Below are positions 3,407-60,539 of a DNA stretch of 64,000 bases, one piece after another. Each line of letters begins with the position of its first letter. Position 1 is the first letter of the stretch. Both the position numbers and the translations under genes were made by a program. Under the pieces are notes generated by a model that saw nothing but the letters and a program-made list of their open reading frames with translations, had not been told where the DNA came from and did no database searches. The stretch comes from a virus (lineage: Duplodnaviria > Caudoviricetes). The stretch lies in IMG/VR virus record IMGVR_UViG_3300025016_000004; one strand, 5' to 3'.

Positions 3407-3614
3407 GAGGCAGTTATTGGAAGAAATTTATGTTTGTAGACAACATTTAGGGTTTTCTTATGAAGATTTAATGAGAATGCCAACTTATGAAAGACGATTC
3501 TTTATGGTTACGTTACAAAACGAAGCTATTGACGCTGAAGAACGTAGAAGTAGTGGTTCTAGAGTTACAAAAACAGGTAAATGGTCACAAACTAGGAAAT
3601 ATTCACCTAAATAA
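3381..3614 (+). CDS. gp51-like / gpT-like chaperone segment, probably expressed by frameshift from 2300..3406
   Basis: +1 frame reads FFGLTLEYKRQLLEEI...GFSYEDLMRMPTYERRFF. No ATG lies upstream of the conserved part (the track uses GTG 3342). The frames overlap at a T7 run (3380-3386). Confidence 0.6.
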   Translation, partial: FFGLTLEYKRQLLEEIYVCRQHLGFSYEDLMRMPTYERRFFMVTLQNEAIDAEERRSSGSRVTKTGKWSQTRKYSPK

Positions 3615-3616
3615 GA

Positions 3617-3642
3617 AAAGCCCTTAATTATTAGGGGTTTTT
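3617..3642 (+). terminator. Intrinsic terminator
   Basis: AAAGCCCTTAA-TTA-TTAGGGGTTTT hairpin right after stop 3614. Confidence 0.6.
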
Positions 3643-3644
3643 AT

Positions 3645-3968
3645 AAAACGGAGCATAAAACCCACCCACCGTTTTTACGTGGGTGGGATATAAGCGACAA
3701 AAAAACTTGACCTTTTAACTATAGAGTTGTATATTTACAAATAATAAGTTATCGATAACCAAGATAACCTGTTCTTTGATGTATGATATGTGGTTGGCAA
3801 ACAAGGTTTTGTTTGCCATAAAATCATGGAAAGCAAATGAAAAGAATTTTCATGTCTGAATGCGGGACGCATTTCGGACAATAAGCAAAAACAAGTGGAG
3901 GTGTTGTCGTTGGGCAAGTCAATGAAACTTGAAGCCCATCCATCACGAAGTGTGGATGGGTAGTTCAC
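3645..3968 (+). mobile_element. Non-autonomous IS200/IS605-family (TnpB-type) element, 324 bp, no ORF
   Basis: Preceded by TTTAT; left hairpin CCCACCCAC/GTGGGTGGG (3661-3687) with ATAAAA at its foot; right hairpin GCCCATCCA/TGGATGGGT (3934-3961) preceded by TTGAA and ending AGTTCAC; both ends are shared with the element at 60032-60082. Confidence 0.8.
3706..3738 (+). promoter_or_regulatory. Host-type promoter inside the IS605-like element
   Basis: TTGACC-17 bp-TATATT; also reads as cTTG-N20-TAtaTTTAC, a near match to the Bacteroidota -33/-7 pattern. Confidence 0.55.
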
Positions 3969-3988
3969 TAGATATTTATATTAAAACG
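3742..3988 (+). ncRNA. Putative stand-alone TnpB omegaRNA (reRNA) scaffold plus flank-derived guide
   Basis: About 225 nt of consecutive hairpins downstream of the promoter. Retains a frameshifted tnpB-like 3' tail (SECGTH / SDNKQKQVEVLSLGKSMKLEAHP) and ends at TTCAC. The guide would be TAGATATTTATATTAAAACG. Boundaries are inferred. Confidence 0.5.
3973..3979 (+). promoter_or_regulatory. TATTTAT putative late-promoter motif
   Basis: 16 nt upstream of ATG 3996. Confidence 0.5.
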
Positions 3989-3995
3989 ATTCATT

Positions 3996-5216
3996 ATGAG
4001 TGATATGACATACGCATATAAAGTTATGGCTTCATTATTATTAGAAGCTGAACTAAAGGAAGTTTTACCAAATATACAACAAGAAAGTGTAATTAGATTG
4101 GTTTTAAAAGATAAATCTGAAAAAACATTTTTTGTTGAGTCAAATTTAGCTGGTAGAGTTATTATGGTTGATAAAAGTGATGGTAAAGAATACACTTTTA
4201 CCAAAGATGCGATTAGTGATGGTACTTTAACAATTTATAAATATGAAAAAAATTCACCAAGTGGTGAAGGTGCTAAAATCGTATTGAAAGTTGAAGAGTT
4301 TAGTACTGCTAAAAAAGGTGGCGAAATAAAACAAGTAGATATCGTTAAACCTATTGAAGAGAATCGTTTAGAGGAAAGAATGAATGAAATGAATGACATT
4401 ATAAAAACGGCTAAAAAAGGTTCTATAATCAACATTGCTTCAGAAGAAAAAATTGCTGAAAATGATGGTATAACAAATAATATTTTTTTAAGAGTTAATG
4501 AAATTACCCCTAAAAAATTAAGTTGTACGTTAGAAGATATCAATTCTGATGGTGAAAGTACTAAAATTAAAACTTTATTAAATACATTTAAAAATAGAAA
4601 TATATATATCAGCATTAATAGTTTAGTAAAAATTAAAAATAACGATTTAGTGTTAAATCTTTATAGGTCAGATAGAATTGTACAAATTACTGGGTTATTA
4701 AATATTGAAGTAGGTGGCGGTGGGGTTGATAACGGTGATAGTGATTACACACCAATGAGTAAACAAGAATTAATTGATAAAATCAAAAGTAGCCCACATA
4801 GTAAAGAATATTTAGAAGCTATGGATAAAACACCTGATTTTTGGGATACATTAATGAATGCATCACCAAAAGGTGTTAATCAATTAAACCAAATATTAGA
4901 TAAAGAGGTAACTAAAAATTCTTATTTAACCGTAGGAAGGCAAATTCAATTCGAAATAATTTCTGGGTCAGTTATAGTTGACAATAACATTAAATTATTG
5001 AATACTGATAAATTTAGAAGTCATAAATACCCTGGTAAAATAGAAAAAGGTAATATTATAATAAGTGGGCGTAGAAGAAGTACTAATGGACATTGGGAGT
5101 TAAAAATTTTAAAAGATTTAGGTGATGGTAATTTTAAAGTTAGGGTAAGTCATTGTGATATGGACCTTAATTGTAAAATAGTAGAGGATGAAGGCGCAAT
5201 AAGAATTGTTGAATAA
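3996..5216 (+). CDS. Hypothetical protein in tail module
   Basis: 406-aa open frame directly upstream of the tape-measure gene; no motif recognised. Confidence 0.8.
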   Translation: MSDMTYAYKVMASLLLEAELKEVLPNIQQESVIRLVLKDKSEKTFFVESNLAGRVIMVDKSDGKEYTFTKDAISDGTLTIYKYEKNSPSGEGAKIVLKVEEFSTAKKGGEIKQVDIVKPIEENRLEERMNEMNDIIKTAKKGSIINIASEEKIAENDGITNNIFLRVNEITPKKLSCTLEDINSDGESTKIKTLLNTFKNRNIYISINSLVKIKNNDLVLNLYRSDRIVQITGLLNIEVGGGGVDNGDSDYTPMSKQELIDKIKSSPHSKEYLEAMDKTPDFWDTLMNASPKGVNQLNQILDKEVTKNSYLTVGRQIQFEIISGSVIVDNNIKLLNTDKFRSHKYPGKIEKGNIIISGRRRSTNGHWELKILKDLGDGNFKVRVSHCDMDLNCKIVEDEGAIRIVE

Positions 5217-8101: not shown

Positions 8102-11100
8102 ATGGCTAATTCAATAAATTATTTATCTCCCAATTTTAGAGATTTGTTATTAAACAGAAATTTAATATTATCTGATACTGTAACTAATAACGGTTTAAGT
8201 GTTTCTGCTATTGGTTTAGGTTCTCAAGCGAATATATCCACTAATTTTGATTCCATTCAACCATCTGAAAATTTAGAAGATTCAGGTGTTAATTATCGTA
8301 ATGATGTTATTAGTAGAAATAGATATACTTCAACCGAAGATATGGTTGCCGCAACCATAATAAACAATTCTTATAGTTATGCTCAACGTGATGGTGGTTA
8401 TATTGATGAGAATAAAGATTTAAATCTTGGTGGTTATGGAACCAAAAGTTTGGATGTTTTAGATAGTATTCTATCTCAAGAAGGTTTTGGATTAGGAAAT
8501 GGTAGTTTCACTTCTCAAGGTGACATCAGAACAACATTAGCTGGGAGGGCTCTAGGAGCCACTGGGGGTATAAATGAGACACCTTTAGGTATAATAGGTG
8601 GTCAACAGTTACTTTTAGCTTTGGGTCAAAGAGCGACCTTTAATGCGCAAAGAGAGTTATTCGGTCAAGTTAATCTTCAACCGTTTAGTTTATTAAGTGG
8701 GTCTGACTTTATTGTACCCGATAATAGTATTACTGTTAGAGGTACAACTGCTGGTAGAATTGGTGATTTAGCTTTAGATATTACAGGATTCAATTTACCA
8801 ATTGATATTATTGATGAAAACGCTTCAATTTTTACGAATAATGTAGACGTTAATATGAGTGAAGCTAGTTTATTAAGAAACGTTTCTTTAATCAAATATA
8901 CAGGTAAAGGACAATTACTTAGATTATTTGATAATCTTAATTTAAATGAATTTAAACCTGCATATACTTCAGATGGTGCTGGTAGAAGTAAATTAGGTGT
9001 TACTGACCCTCGTGAATATAACGTAAATACTAGTGGTGTAACTTTAAATTCACTTGAGTTTAGTCCACTTAATGGTTTACCTGTTGCAAGTCAAACAGAA
9101 TTTAACGGAAGTGATTCAATTTGGAACCCAAATTCAACTTTTAGTGATACTGGTGATTTATTATCTAAAACTAAAGATTTATTCAATGATATTGTAAAAT
9201 ATAAAATTAATTTCGATGCTCAAGGTACACCTTTAGTTGATTTCTCACAATTAAACACACCATCAGGTAATAGATTATCTAAAAGTAGTGGGGTTTTAAG
9301 TCAAGATTATCTAATGGGTAGTTCTGATATTGATAATGTGTTTTGTAGAACATGGACATCAACTAAAACTTATGGTTCAGTTAGTGATTTACAAAAAAAT
9401 AGCGGGTTATTTAATTATAGAGATAAAATTAGGAATGATATTGAAGATTCTGTATTAGGTAGTAATGGTTTTGTTAAAATTTCACCTTATAAAATACCTG
9501 ATAGCGGTGCTGTTGACCCTTATGAGGCTAAGAAATTCATGTTTTCAATTGAAAACTTAGCTTGGAATGATTCATTAGAAAACTTACCTAAATTTGAAAT
9601 TGGTAATGGTGACCCTAAAACAGGAACTAAAGGTAGAATTATGTGGTTTCCACCATATGACATAAAATTTACTGACACAACAACAATTGATTGGGATTCA
9701 ACTAAATTCATTGGTAGAGGAGAACCAGTTTATACTTATAATAATACTGAAAGAAGTGGTACTTTAGCATTTAAAGTAATAATTGATTATCCTGATTATA
9801 TGAATAATAGTAAAATTATTACTAATGAATTAATGGCTAGTTTAGTTGCTGGTTGCACTGATTATAACCAATATTTTTCACAAAATGAATTAGCTCAATT
9901 ACAAGAAGAAATAAATGCTGATATTAAATTAGAAGAAGAATTTATAGCTACGGACGTTTATTTACCAGATAATTTTAACTTTTATTTCCCTAATGACGTT
10001 GCTTCGTTATATCCAGATTATGAAGATAACAATGCGATATCCCCACTTATTACATATTCTGAAGGTTACACATCAAGTGTAGGAACACCTTCCAATAACT
10101 GGACTCAATATGGATTAAATACTCGTTGGAATGTAGTAGGGTTTTCAGATTTAATTAAAGAGGCTGTATTACAAAATAATGGTATAGCTATTAAATTAAG
10201 TGGTTATGCAAGTAAAGTTGGGACTGCTGAATCAAATATAAGATTATCTGATGCTAGAATTGCAACAGTAAAACAATGGTTTCAAACTAATGTTAAAAGT
10301 GATATAAGATTTGTAGAAACAACATCAAGAGGTGATAAAGATGCTACTTCTGATGCTACTTATAGAGTAGATTCTGAGTTGGTTAAAAAAGAAAGAGCTG
10401 TGATAGTCGAATTCATTTATCAACCTGAATACGATGAACAAATATCAAATGTTACGGATATTAAGACAGAAAAAACAAATTCCGCAGCTAAAGAAATTAT
10501 ACGTAGAGTCACGAATAGATTCCATCGTGAAGATGAATATTTTGAGAAATTAAAGAAAAGTGATTCTCAAAGTGATAAAATTATTTATAATAATATTAGG
10601 GAGAAAATAAAATTCTTTCACCCAGCATTTCATTCAACAACACCAGAAGGATTTAATTCTAGATTAACATTTTTACAACAATGTACTAGGCAAGGCCCAA
10701 CTAATAAAACTAACAAGAGTAATAATTTAGCTTTTGGAAAACCACCAGTATGTATTTTAAGAATTGGTGATTTTTATCACACTAAAATAATAATTAATAG
10801 CCTTGGGATAGATTATGAACCATTGGTTTGGGATTTAAATCCAGAAGGTGTTGGAGTTCAACCAATGATAGCAAATGTTAATATATCATTTAAATTCATT
10901 GGTGGAAGTGCGTTAAATGGGCCTATAAATAAATTACAAAATGCTGTTTCTTTTAATTATTTTGCCAATTCGGGTGTTTATGACCCTAGAGCTGATAGAT
11001 GGGTTAGGAAAGAAAAAATAAACCCAACAAAACCAGAATTATTTGACCCTTTAGAAGGTGTTACTAATTTAAGAGAGTTTGCTGAAGAAGCTTATGACCC

Positions 11101-11901: not shown

Positions 11902-14900
11902 TTTAAAGTCGAATGTTAAAGTTACTAAAGTTAAGAATCTTTGGGTTATAGACCCAAATGGTGAAGACTCTACAGCAGCTAATTTAGAAGATTTAAATAT
12001 ATCTGTTGAGTTAGAAGTTTTAGTAAGAGGTGATGACCCTATAATTTATTCTAAAAATAATATAAACGCTACTAACCCTACCAGTAATGAAGTAACTAGA
12101 ATTAGTTTTATTGATGGTTCTGGTAATGAAGAAAAGTATTTAACAACTCACTACACTGAATTAAACACTAAATTTAATAGGGATAATAAAGATTTGGGTA
12201 CATTAGGTATCGAGACAATAGATATTAGTTTTAACACTTCATATGTACCTATTGTAAAAATCAAATTCAAAGATATAAGAGGTCAATTATTTGAATTAGG
12301 TGAAGAGTCACCATATTCATTTTTATTTAAAATGCCTTACCCAATATTTTATTTAACTGTTAAAGGTTATTACGGAAAACCCGTTCAATATGCTTTACAT
12401 ATGACTAAATTTAACGGTAATTTAGATAATGAAACGGGTAGTTTTATTATTACATGTGATTTTATTGGTTATACATATGCATTTTTATCTGATTTATTAA
12501 TGGGTATATTAAAAGGAACGCCTTACACACAAAAAGGTATTAATGCTATTAAATCCATTCAAGGGTTTACAACTTTTGAAGAATTACGAAGTATTGTTAA
12601 AAAATTGGAAGATTATATCATTAAATTCAGAGAAGATAATAAACAATTAAAGGCGTTAACCATTTATGATAAATTAAATACGAAATTACTTTCCATTGAA
12701 CAATCATTAACAAATGTGTTTCCATTAATATTTGAAGGTTATACTAAACTTACTGACACTGGGGTAACCACAGCTCAAAACATGGCTGTAGCTATGAATA
12801 CCAATGTAAATTATTTCACAAATAATCCTGATTATTTAAAACCATATACATTATCTGACACTACTAAAAAAGAATATAAAAATTCCACATTAAAATTAGT
12901 TGAAGAATATAATGAGTTAAACCAAGTTAAAGGGGATTCAAAAACTTTTAAGTTAAATATTGAAGATTTTCAATTGGATAGTAATGGAATATTTTATAAT
13001 AATTTTAAAGTAGCAGATTTTATTCGTAAAAACGAATTTAATATAGCTACTACATCATTTTATTCATTTGATGAATTTCAAAAAAGTAAGGATATTAAAA
13101 AATACCTTAATTTTAAAATAAAAGAACAAAATGACACTTTTATTAAAGAAATGTATGGGTATACGCTTGATATAATTAATAAAAAGTATAGAGATAATAA
13201 TTTAATAACCGACCCTTCAATAAAAAACATGGTTGATATTAGATTTGCATTAAATAAAGTTAGATTAACTAGGGAAAAATTACAAGAGGAATTTGATAAA
13301 AATAAAAAGTTAGTAACTGAATCTTTCACTCAAGATATTAACAGTTTCTTAAAAAAAGAAGGAACTAAATTTGACGCTTCAATAGGGTCTTTATTTAAAA
13401 TTTTATGTGACCATGTTGATTTATTTATTGATGTTGTTAAAAACCTTGAAGAAGAAATAGAAAATGACCGAAAAAATGGTAATAGAAATTTACAAGCAGC
13501 TGATAAAAGAAATTTTACTGAATTTATAAGCATTAACGGTTCTAATCAAATTGCGGTTGCACCATTTCCAGAATATGTAGAAGATGAAGGTAAAGACACC
13601 AACGGTGATGGTACTTTGGTTGAAAAATGGTTAGGTTCTAAGCGTAAATTTAGTGAATATGCTGAAGTTAAATTTATCAACGATTTATACGATTCTATTA
13701 AAATGGCCGCTAAAAAGGATAAAGAAATAATAGAGGGTATTTACGCTGACTCTAAAGCGTGGTTTCCAATAAACCCATTAGAAACATTAGCGTTTGATGA
13801 AAACAATGAAAATCCTTGGAATAGCGTAATCCATTCTAACATACAACCAGCCATGAAATTGATTGTTCAAAGAATGGCATTATTTTTAGGTTTTTCGCAT
13901 AAAAATTTAACTATTGAAGAAATTACTGAAGTAGCTAAAATTGAAGCTAATCAAGCCTATAACACTCTTATAGATGTTAAAAATGTTATAATAGAACCTA
14001 ACGGTAATATTGATACACAAATAAAAACATATTTTGGTGATAGTCAAGAAACATTTGGTAAAGTAGGCACATTTCATGGATTAAGATTATATTATAATAA
14101 AAGTTTTTTAGGTGGGGATAAAATTGTTTATCATCACGATAAACCAGATATTGGTAATGGTGGTTTTAAAAATTTTAATGATGCATTTAATAACAGACCA
14201 GAATTTATTCCAATTAACCAAACAACCAAATCTTTAGATAGTAAATTTAATGAATTAAATACAAATACTGGTAGAAGTTATTTTAATGGTACGTTTATTA
14301 GTAATGTAATATCTAATAGTCAATTGAATGAGGGTACAAATAATGAGATTGAATATGAAAAATTTATTAAAATAATAGATAAAAGTGATTATACTAAACA
14401 ATTAATTTACGAAAGTTATGTAACGGGTGGTGACGGTAATGGTGTTGTAAGCGAAATGGCTGAAAATGAGTTAGTGAGTACACATAATACATTACTTGGT
14501 GGTCGATATAGAACACATGAATTCATGACATACAAAACTCCAAAAAGTGAATCACCTTTATTTTATGAATTTTATGATATAAGATTAAAAGAAAATCTTA
14601 TAAGTAGAGCTGGTGATGAAGGTAAAAATTTTATTTTTAATTCAAATTTTAAAAGTAATAAAAAAATTTATAATTTATTTGGTTCTAGATTTTATTATAA
14701 TCAAACAGATAATTATAGTAAAGCTTTATTATTTTTACATTCAATACCTTTTGAAGGACTTTTATATAAAAATTCTTATGAAATTTTACCTTTAGGGTTA
14801 TTGAGTAATAAAACTTTAAAATATTTTAATGAAAGGGCTGGGTTTACTTCAATCCCATATTCTTGGATTTTGTTTATGGGTGGTTTATTATTTAGAAATT

Positions 14901-58113: not shown

Positions 58114-58530
58114 ATGATAGACGCTAGACACTTAAGACCTAATTTAACACCATCAAAATTGTTAGATTTACCCCAACATTTTGGTTGGGGTTTAAGTGCT
58201 TTTGATATGACACCAACGTCTGGGTTTGTTGAAACAGATATAATACCAAATAGATTTACATGTTCTGAAGTTAGAATATCGTTAACAAGTGGTGATACTA
58301 GCAGTATCGTTAGTGTTGATATTTATAGAAATGGAACTTCAATATTTGAAGTTCCAGTATCAATTGATATATCAGGCACAACAAGTGTTGGTTCGACAGC
58401 ACCATACCTTTTTAATCTTAGTGCGTCAACTTTTAATTTTTTAGAGAATGATAGAATATATTTTTATGTATCAGGGGCAACTAATTGCTTAGGCTTAAAA
58501 GTTAAATTAATTGGTAATAGAATAATATAA
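58114..58530 (+). CDS. Tail-associated protein, paralog 1
   Basis: 138 aa; VSVDIYRNGTSIF; full-length homolog of 58534-58956. Confidence 0.75.
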   Translation: MIDARHLRPNLTPSKLLDLPQHFGWGLSAFDMTPTSGFVETDIIPNRFTCSEVRISLTSGDTSSIVSVDIYRNGTSIFEVPVSIDISGTTSVGSTAPYLFNLSASTFNFLENDRIYFYVSGATNCLGLKVKLIGNRII

Positions 58531-58533
58531 ATA

Positions 58534-58956
58534 ATGATAGATAGTAAACATTTAAAACCGAATATACCTTCATCTAAATTCATTGAAATGCCCCAAGAAT
58601 TTGGATGGGCGTTATCGTCTGCATTTGGGGTACCTACATCTGGGTTAACCGTTTCAGATAGGTTACCAAATGGTTTTGAATGTTCTGAAATAAAATTAAC
58701 ATTAACTAGCGGTGATACCAGTGGTATAGTATCAGTTGATATCCATAAAAATGGAACTTCTATATTTGAAGTTCCAGTATCAATTGATGTATCAGGTACA
58801 ACTAGCGTTGGAGCAACCACACCATTTTTATTTACAAGTAGTGCAACTACTACAACCTTTTTAGATAATAATGAAGTTAAATTTTATGTTAGTGGTGCAA
58901 CAGATTGTTTAGGGTTAAAGGTTAGAATGATTGGTAATAAAATAATAAATGGCTAA
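58534..58956 (+). CDS. Tail-associated protein, paralog 2
   Basis: 140 aa; VSVDIHKNGTSIFEVPVSID; full-length homolog of 58114-58530. Confidence 0.75.
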   Translation: MIDSKHLKPNIPSSKFIEMPQEFGWALSSAFGVPTSGLTVSDRLPNGFECSEIKLTLTSGDTSGIVSVDIHKNGTSIFEVPVSIDVSGTTSVGATTPFLFTSSATTTTFLDNNEVKFYVSGATDCLGLKVRMIGNKIING

Positions 58957-59932: not shown

Positions 59933-60031
59933 TAAAGTATTATCAGCTTCTGAAATAACTGATATTATAAATACTCATAGGGTAAATTAAAACATAGATT
60001 GGTAAACTAAACATTTACTTTACCTATTTAT

Positions 60032-60082
60032 AAAACGGAGCATAAAACCCATTCATCGCTTTAGCGTGGATGGGCAGTTCAC
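60032..60082 (+). mobile_element. 51-bp single-hairpin miniature derivative of the IS605-type element
   Basis: TTTAT plus AAAACGGAGCATAAAACCCA is identical to 3640-3664; ends GTGGATGGGCAGTTCAC (16/17 match to 3952-3968). Confidence 0.8.
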
Positions 60083-60113
60083 AATGTATAATAAATAAAT
60101 AAATAAAACGAAA

Positions 60114-60539
60114 ATGGCAAATGCAATTTACAACTCTTTTAAGAGAGACATCCAAAATGGAACTATCAATTTAACAGCTGATACCATTAATGTGATGTTA
60201 GTTACGAGTACTTACACTCCTAACATTGATACGCACACAAAGCGTTCAGATATAACAAACGAAGTTTCAGGTTCTGGATATACTTCTGGCGGTACTTCTT
60301 TAGTAACAACTGTAGTTAGTGCTGACACAACAAATGACAAAGGTGTTTTTGATGCCGATGACGTTTCTTGGACAGGCTCAACAATTACAGCAAGAGGTGC
60401 AGTTCTTTACAAATCTAGAGGTGGCGCAGCATCAGATGATGAATTAATCGCTTATTTAGATTTTGTAACGGATAAGGTATCAAGCGGTGGTAATTTTAAT
60501 CTAGTATTTAACGTTAATGGTATATTGACTCTGGCGTAA
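60114..60539 (+). CDS. Putative virion structural protein
   Basis: 141 aa; MANAIYNSFK...SGYTSGG...ITARGAVLY...LIAYLDF. Confidence 0.7.
   Translation: MANAIYNSFKRDIQNGTINLTADTINVMLVTSTYTPNIDTHTKRSDITNEVSGSGYTSGGTSLVTTVVSADTTNDKGVFDADDVSWTGSTITARGAVLYKSRGGAASDDELIAYLDFVTDKVSSGGNFNLVFNVNGILTLA

Follow-up and report, generated by a model that had tools for sequence, protein, structure and literature searches.

A 51-nt element lying between a promoter-like motif and the start of a phage gene is probably an immobile solo-hairpin (terminal-only) scar of an IS200/IS605 transposon, formed when a repeat-mediated deletion removed the transposon core. Together with its TTTAT target it occupies positions 60027-60082 of the window, by which we mean the whole stretch of 64,000 nucleotides that was analysed. 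Three steps could account for its present form. First, a Y1 TnpA would have put a long-form copy, either a PATE or a TnpB-bearing IS, into single-stranded DNA directly 3' of TTTAT, with the TATTTAT upstream motif on one side and the start of gene 60114 on the other, an event that we infer from the family and from the alleles of the site. Second, replication slippage or recombination between the similar end hairpins, at the 3' foot (..TGGG), would have deleted the entire core, so that only the leader and hairpin of the left end and the 8-nt tail of the right end were left. Third, this remnant would retain the left cleavage site, the left guide and the TnpA-binding hairpin, while the second hairpin, the right guide (GAAG) and whatever guide-RNA (omega RNA) scaffold there was would be gone, so that, by analogy with characterised elements, a two-hairpin synaptic complex for excision would not form. 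What persists would most likely be a scar that no longer moves and decays neutrally within the 5' leader of gene 60114.

The window is AT-rich (~29% G+C) and has 50 called ORFs, 47 of them on the + strand, with T4-type structural and replication genes that include gp19, gp25, gp32 and an intein-bearing ribonucleotide reductase. It derives from a large uncultivated phage, probably one of Bacteroidota. No Y1 gene was found among its 50 ORFs. The short element, referred to here as a mini, probably lies inside the 5' untranslated region of gene 60114. Around it, a tblastn search with the 488-aa neighbour gene gave no match and the upstream 319-aa protein has no relatives in IMG/VR; two adjoining ORFs at 58114-58530 and 58534-58956, 138 and 140 aa long, form a pair of tandem paralogues with 73% identity across 300 nt. 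The features needed to follow the analysis are these:

60025-60031, + strand: TATTTAT, gene-upstream (promoter-like) motif, enriched 5' of gene starts
60027-60031, + strand: TTTAT, transposon target and left cleavage site (CL = TTAT), the last five bases of TATTTAT
60032-60047, + strand: left-end leader AAAACGGAGCATAAAA, 16 nt, identical to 3645-3660 of the 324-bp element
60044-60047, + strand: left guide GL = AAAA, the leader's last four bases, directly 5' of the hairpin foot
60048-60074, + strand: subterminal hairpin CCCATTCATCGCTTTAGCGTGGATGGG, a 27-nt imperfect palindrome CCCATTCATCGC-TTTA-GCGTGGATGGG
60075-60082, + strand: right-end tail CAGTTCAC, 8 nt, minority C variant, part of a 16/17 match to 3952-3968
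60079-60082, + strand: right cleavage site CR = TCAC, the element's last four bases
60083-60113, + strand: right flank AATGTATAATAAATAAAT..., up to the ATG of gene 60114; joined to 60031 it gives the empty site
60114-60539, + strand: downstream gene, 141 aa, phrog_644, function unknown, relatives found
3640-3968, + strand: sibling copy, TTTAT (3640-3644) followed by a 324-nt ORF-less PATE (3645-3968) with two hairpins
Predicted donor joint of the mini's site: CCTATTTAT joined to AATGTATAAT

The first-pass annotation had described a 51-bp IS605 derivative composed of a leader, one hairpin and a right tail. Its coordinates are right: TTTAT is followed by a 16-nt leader, a 27-nt bulged hairpin and an 8-nt tail, and the same ends flank TnpA/TnpB elements elsewhere. 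The hairpin consists of 8 bp (one T.G pair included), a bulged T and then 3 bp, and folds as DNA at -7.6 to -7.8 kcal/mol (z = -1.7). This energy alone is unexceptional, and the significance of the hairpin lies in its sequence identity and its family, since the same bulged imperfect-palindrome design is found in 59 long-form left-end and 39 right-end hairpins. It is presumed from its sequence to be a TnpA binding hairpin of the left-end type. As had been noted, the right guide GAAG, which stands 5' of every long-form right-end hairpin, is absent. The mini thus has a single hairpin with its left guide AAAA, where a competent IS200/IS605 substrate has two hairpins and two guides. Other classes of structured element were considered as well. 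A reading as an intrinsic terminator was rejected, the hairpin being followed by CAGTTCACAATG, which has no T-run. Rfam returned no family at gathering score anywhere in the window, and an E-value search of 3600-4000, around the 324-bp sibling, gave a sole match of 19 bits, at chance level.

The relation to this sibling can be read within the window. The 25-mer TTTATAAAACGGAGCATAAAACCCA, which starts at TTTAT, occurs exactly twice (3640 and 60027; 0 expected from 100 shuffles), and the 17-mer GTGGATGGGCAGTTCAC that forms the terminus of the mini matches 3952-3968 with one mismatch (16/17; 0.03 expected), in agreement with the shared 25 bp and 16 of 17 terminal bp already reported for the pair. 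No other match to the 17-mer at up to 3 mismatches was found in the window, where loose searches likewise found no further family copies, so that the window holds two. Internally, the 324-bp element combines a left-end hairpin with a sigma70-like TTGACC-17-TATATT, a 3' part of marked structure (fold z = -4.2), and GAAG with a right-end hairpin; blastn of the element against INPHARED phages gave no match. Both window copies have the leader variant GCATAAAA (3645-3660 and 60032-60047), and the other sampled members have GCGTAAAA, which explains why IMG/VR has no exact match to the 20-mer that forms the window's left end. With the same leader variant, the two copies nevertheless have hairpins of different subtypes, a combination that suggests recombination or gene conversion between copies inside the genome.

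A separate observation concerns the left hairpin of the sibling (3661-3687), in which C replaces the family's bulged, extrahelical T: the 324-bp element has CCCACCCA-C-CG, and L311, L316, L329 and L376 have CCCACCCA-T-CG. TnpA of IS608 contacts the extrahelical T of its hairpin. By analogy, the 324-bp copy may bind TnpA poorly.

To place both copies in a family, IMG/VR viral contigs were scanned with the right-end 17-mer and with a left-end pattern, and other fetched loci were added. The scans of the collections use exact patterns, and their counts are samples, among the matches listed. At least 95 distinct left ends were gathered from the scans and the other loci, together with at least 26 distinct minis of 47-55 nt, a form for which a search of genome and metagenomes had been proposed. 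Distances from a left end to the nearest right end fall, among the matches listed, into classes of 49-55 nt (17), 196-358 nt (14), ~0.8-0.9 kb (3), ~1.35 kb (2), 1.76-1.80 kb (5) and 2.5 kb (1). The 1.76-1.80-kb elements (~1.79 kb) agree with the mini in both ends and in the TTTAT target. They encode a 136-aa ORF adjoining the left end on the opposite strand, exemplified by L315:10000-10407 (+), with a full-length Y1_Tnp domain (PF01797, E 6e-33), and a 399-aa TnpB that stops ~5 nt before the right end and contains the domains HTH_OrfB_IS605, OrfB_IS605 and Cas12f1-like_TNB (PF12323, PF01385, PF07282). TnpB-only copies form the ~1.35-kb class and are seen in L015, L019, L296 and L379, and the 200-360-nt class consists of ORF-less PATEs, the window's 324-bp element included. 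Among the matches listed, TTTAT precedes the left end in 81 of 85 cases, 76 of the 85 have a leader of 16 nt, and insertion is 3' of TTTAT without repetition of the target at the right flank. Immediately 5' of the hairpin foot, left ends have the four bases AAAA and right ends have GAAG, and the cleavage sites are TTAT on the left, outside the element, and TCAC on the right, its last four bases. Since the ends are shared with TnpA/TnpB elements and follow the IS608 design, the family is a bona fide IS200/IS605 lineage.

This lineage looks largely phage-resident in the collections searched. Scanning bacterial and archaeal genomes (one per species, 185,579 species) with the right-end 17-mer gave 93 matches, only 2 of which have the family architecture; both (L249 and L270) are minis on contigs of Bacteroidetes metagenome-assembled genomes. 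The matches of the same 17-mer in IMG/VR are mostly family members, the comparison covering loci L001-L037 and L291-L384, and no bacterial host reservoir was revealed by the scan of bacterial and archaeal genomes. Among named phages, the best match of the family TnpB is in a Parabacteroides phage (63%).

Two side observations came out of this collection. Three loci have a GIY-YIG/NUMOD homing-endonuclease gene between IS605 ends: L304 (2415-3235, +), L349 (3277-5793, +) and L383, whose element of ~865 nt lies on the - strand. The endonuclease stands in place of TnpB in L304 and L383, and after TnpA and TnpB in L349. A protein-guided homing nuclease in a TnpA transposon, at the usual place of the RNA-guided TnpB, may merit separate study. 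Also, the record of L378 (G004) has a PATE-sized copy at 14122-14456 and a copy from 9199 (9199-9450) with a left end and no right end. Both retain C-terminal tnpA fragments on the opposite strand beside the left end, and they show stepwise decay from a full element.

The hairpin itself indicates how the core would have been lost. In long forms, leader and hairpin are followed by ATGTAAGCGAC; in minis, they are followed directly by TAGTTCAC. Four long-form copies (L306, L313, L342 and one more) have a left-end hairpin that agrees with that of the mini at 0 mismatches; the nearest right-end hairpin is 9 mismatches away. Given this identity, the junction falls at the 3' foot of the hairpin, and the mini reads as a complete left end up to this foot plus the last 8 nt of a right end. 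The earlier proposal, in which one hairpin replaced two by recombination between similar CCCA...TGGG stems, stands as far as two similar hairpins recombined. A hybrid between the pair of hairpins in the 324-bp neighbour was rejected, because the mini hairpin matches neither of them and is identical to the left-end hairpin found in other copies. With ~50 bp, fused termini, a single palindrome and a sequence that can be derived from the long form, the mini has the properties of a terminal-only PATE.

Related phages preserve other states of the same site. In L118, whose downstream gene has 82% amino-acid identity, the site is uninterrupted (CTATTTAT joined to AATATAT...), and the window minus the mini aligns to it gap-free across the junction on both sides; this is the empty allele for which the first-pass annotation had suggested looking. 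L153 and L156 come from two further metagenome samples and match window 60065-60290 (226 nt) at 96% identity, and both the right flank of the mini and its minority tail CAGTTCAC are present there. Directly 5' of this tail they have ~85 nt of a long-form right end, ...CAAGTGGAGGCGTTGACATTGG...GAAG followed by the right-end hairpin. A deletion through 9 nt of microhomology (AACAAGTGG) to a copy of window 58221-58292 has truncated this right end on its 5' side, and no left end remains at the site. Two independent insertions at one of several hundred TTTAT sites, both with the same rare tail, are much less likely than descent, and we therefore favour an ancestor that had a long form here, which decayed differently in two lineages. 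A second pair of alleles in IMG/VR is of the same kind: L357 and L374 have a mini where L336 and L343 have a 354-nt form, with flanks 97-100% identical and the rare tail TAGTTTAT common to both.

The forms at these sites have some features of their own. In L153 (2641-2974; the same in L156), the 72-nt copy of window 58221-58292 is joined via AACAAGTGG to the transposon right-end part, and the junction yields a chimeric ORF of 97 aa that reads into the transposon remnant. The 354-nt form (L336:13420-13767, also in L343) has no recognisable left-end leader, and it has a different internal hairpin and a reverse-strand ORF of ~70 aa.

Could the shared ends simply be a regulatory repeat of the phage, without any transposon? 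Both window copies are intergenic and co-oriented with the genes, as such a repeat would be. However, the same ends bound TnpA/TnpB elements in many unrelated phage contigs, they always lie 3' of TTTAT with unrelated flanks, and the empty allele in L118 exists. These observations refute the non-mobile reading, to which we give hardly any credence, and uphold the mobile origin that the first-pass annotation had set against it.

A more serious alternative is that the mini arrived at its present size, as a terminal-only, REP-like PATE moved by TnpA in trans. Several observations speak for mobile minis. L376 has two identical minis 1.8 kb apart with different flanks, and the minis L034 and L037 differ by 1 nt and lie 104 kb apart in one 120-kb record, which is without a long form in the part examined. 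For such pairs mobilisation is simpler than two parallel collapses. Minis also make up about a quarter of the sampled left ends (21 of ~85, among the matches listed), and three of the four CR/GL positions (TCAC against AAAA) would, as we read them, be compatible with IS608-type pairing. In Haloquadratum, six strain-specific 52-bp ISHwa23 insertions have suggested mobilisation (Dyall-Smith et al., PMC3119063). Against this, the mini has one hairpin and no right guide, and the IS608 transpososome needs both ends and GR, removal of which prevents robust synaptic complex formation (PMC3201880). Carried over by analogy, the same GR requirement would hold for the family TnpA. Furthermore, the 96%-identical L153 and L156 have a long-form right end at the very same junction.

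The composition of the minis argues in the same direction. Among the matches listed, the hairpin of 8 of the 26 minis coincides exactly with one of 5 long-form left-end subtypes, and 3-5 minis have hairpins of the right-end type, for which the crossover would lie at the 5' rather than the 3' foot. The minis thus appear polyphyletic, with a recurrent origin and varying crossover points. Hairpin decay is also commoner in minis than in long forms: when one 5' anchor is used for both, weak hairpins (dG above -4) are found in 8 of 22 minis and 2 of 60 long-form left ends among the matches listed (Fisher p = 2.8e-4). The hairpin at 60048-60074 is itself still perfect, so the window's own copy has no visible decay. 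Finally, copy number is low, with 1-2 copies per phage record, including two complete genomes (310 and 334 kb), which is unlike REPs or MITEs. Where scar and mobile mini-element had both been offered before, the long-form alleles, polyphyly, decay and low copy number now favour the scar; arrival of the window's copy as a ready-made mini is unlikely.

The position of the mini raises the question of whether its insertion or its survival was guided by the upstream motif. On the sense strand, TATTTAT occurs at -50 to -6 of gene starts in 15 of 50 copies, with 1.7 expected (p = 6e-11), usually 12-16 nt from the ATG, and its total count in the window is at chance level. Sense-strand examples of (A)TATTTAT(A/T) are at 1429, 3973, 8081, 25726, 32914, 35015, 36893, 51312, 53067 and 60571. 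This motif is a candidate phage promoter and corresponds to the T4 late-promoter sequence TATAAATA in reverse complement. The mini directly abuts the 3' end of one TATTTAT (60025-60031), so the observation that its TTTAT is part of a motif found upstream of genes was correct. The predisposition to late promoters deduced from it is not supported. TA precedes TTTAT in 11 of 81 targets among the matches listed, and ~12-13 are expected from base composition, so that a tally of insertions reveals no excess at TATTTAT, and a family preference for it over plain TTTAT was rejected. The overlap of mini and motif follows from TTTAT being part of TATTTAT; a preference is not demonstrated. As to the sparing of ORFs, also claimed, 22 of 26 minis have no spanning open frame of at least 100 aa (among the matches listed); as for its cause, the position of minis mostly outside long ORFs may reflect selective survival of insertions rather than targeting.

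A remnant in such a position might have been put to use, either at the RNA level, as a hairpin in the leader of gene 60114 that controls its stability or translation, or as an allele immune to TnpB re-homing, the insertion having destroyed the TTTAT-plus-flank target of the TnpB-guide RNA complex from the former right end. The intact hairpin, its sense orientation and its place between the promoter-like TATTTAT and the ATG agree with the first variant, and free-standing IS605 stem-loops conserved at the RNA level are known from Borrelia (PMC2775950). For the second, TnpB cuts the donor joint (TAM plus right flank) and so drives homing (PMC10055086), and the mini separates TAM from flank. Yet L118 is without the element and L153/L156 have a different hairpin at the position, the missing T-run speaks against a terminator, and minis often decay and point either with their neighbouring genes (~15) or against them (8), among the matches listed. 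Co-option of this copy is therefore very unlikely in our judgement. For the 47-55-nt forms in general, we hold it doubtful that they are the smallest mobilisable substrates, in which one hairpin would serve both ends, or that they are kept for immunity to TnpB cutting. If the former were true, TnpA acting in trans would move solo-hairpin forms between TTTAT sites of phage genomes; if the latter, the site would be protected in co-infection from the TnpB-guide RNA cutting that drives long-form homing.

The solo-hairpin scar has its closest counterpart in Haloquadratum walsbyi, where 52-bp terminal-only PATEs arise by deletion between near-terminal palindromes (Dyall-Smith et al. 2011, PMC3119063). 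HqIRS46 has lost its core and ISHwa23 was cut from ~1500 bp to 52 bp, which the authors credit to repeat-mediated deletion while asking if the 52-bp form is still mobilised (PMC3119063). Both systems have ~50-bp forms with termini fused around one near-terminal palindrome, palindromes that are directly repeated, the same proposed mechanism and the same question of whether short forms are mobilised. They differ in the organism, a haloarchaeon there and a phage here, in their unrelated sequences, and in the parent family, which here encodes TnpA and TnpB and targets TTTAT.

The design of the ends is that of IS608 and ISDra2. The imperfect palindromes are subterminal and have an extrahelical T, inverted repeats and target duplication are both lacking, and insertion is 3' of a short target that stays outside the element. 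Cleavage is ~16-19 nt from the left hairpin on its 5' side and 8-10 nt from the right hairpin on its 3' side, with 4-nt guides 5' of each hairpin foot. In ISDra2, tnpA and tnpB are divergent, as they are in full copies of this family. The mini's CL/GL pair TTAT/AAAA parallels TTAC/AAAG of IS608, whose CR, TCAA, lies 3' of the right hairpin (PMC3201880). The mini differs from both elements in having one hairpin, no right guide and no genes, and its target is the pentanucleotide TTTAT. ORF-less PATEs of Geobacillus stearothermophilus carry guide-RNA (omega RNA) scaffolds (Meers et al. 2023, PMC10055086). They are non-autonomous, with conserved ends and a reliance on TnpA/TnpB in trans, a type to which the 324-bp sibling belongs, and they keep both hairpins and usually the scaffold, whereas the 51-nt element has neither a second hairpin nor a scaffold. 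The free-standing IS605 stem-loops of Borrelia plasmids (Delihas 2009, PMC2775950) similarly persist without transposase genes after their element has dissipated; in the mini, both termini are still attached to the hairpin.

Two further comparisons are looser. REPs are high-copy sequences, usually paired as REPINs or BIMEs, with a GTAG or CGTC tag and a single-copy RAYT gene. Like them, the mini is a short extragenic palindrome evolutionarily linked to Y1 (IS200-like) transposases, but the high copy number, the tag and the RAYT gene are lacking: each genome has 1-2 copies, the GTAG tag is missing, and an ordinary TnpA/TnpB IS is the parent. Solo LTRs form when recombination between direct terminal repeats removes the interior and leaves one repeat. 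The likeness is by analogy only, one terminal repeat being left at the insertion site; the two belong to unrelated classes of element, and the repeats are hairpins of 25-29 nt in the one and LTRs of hundreds of bases in the other.

Since the core deletion and its ~52-bp product have already been described in Haloquadratum, the conceptual gain is small, and what is new is the setting in a phage-resident IS605 lineage. The point of wider interest is whether TnpA can still move a single-hairpin element. The mini offers a clean, database-supported example of the death of an IS200/IS605 element, related phages showing one and the same site in three states: empty, occupied by a truncated long form, or reduced to the 51-nt solo hairpin. 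In annotation, ~50-nt hairpins of this kind upstream of phage genes are to be taken as transposon scars rather than as regulators or terminators.
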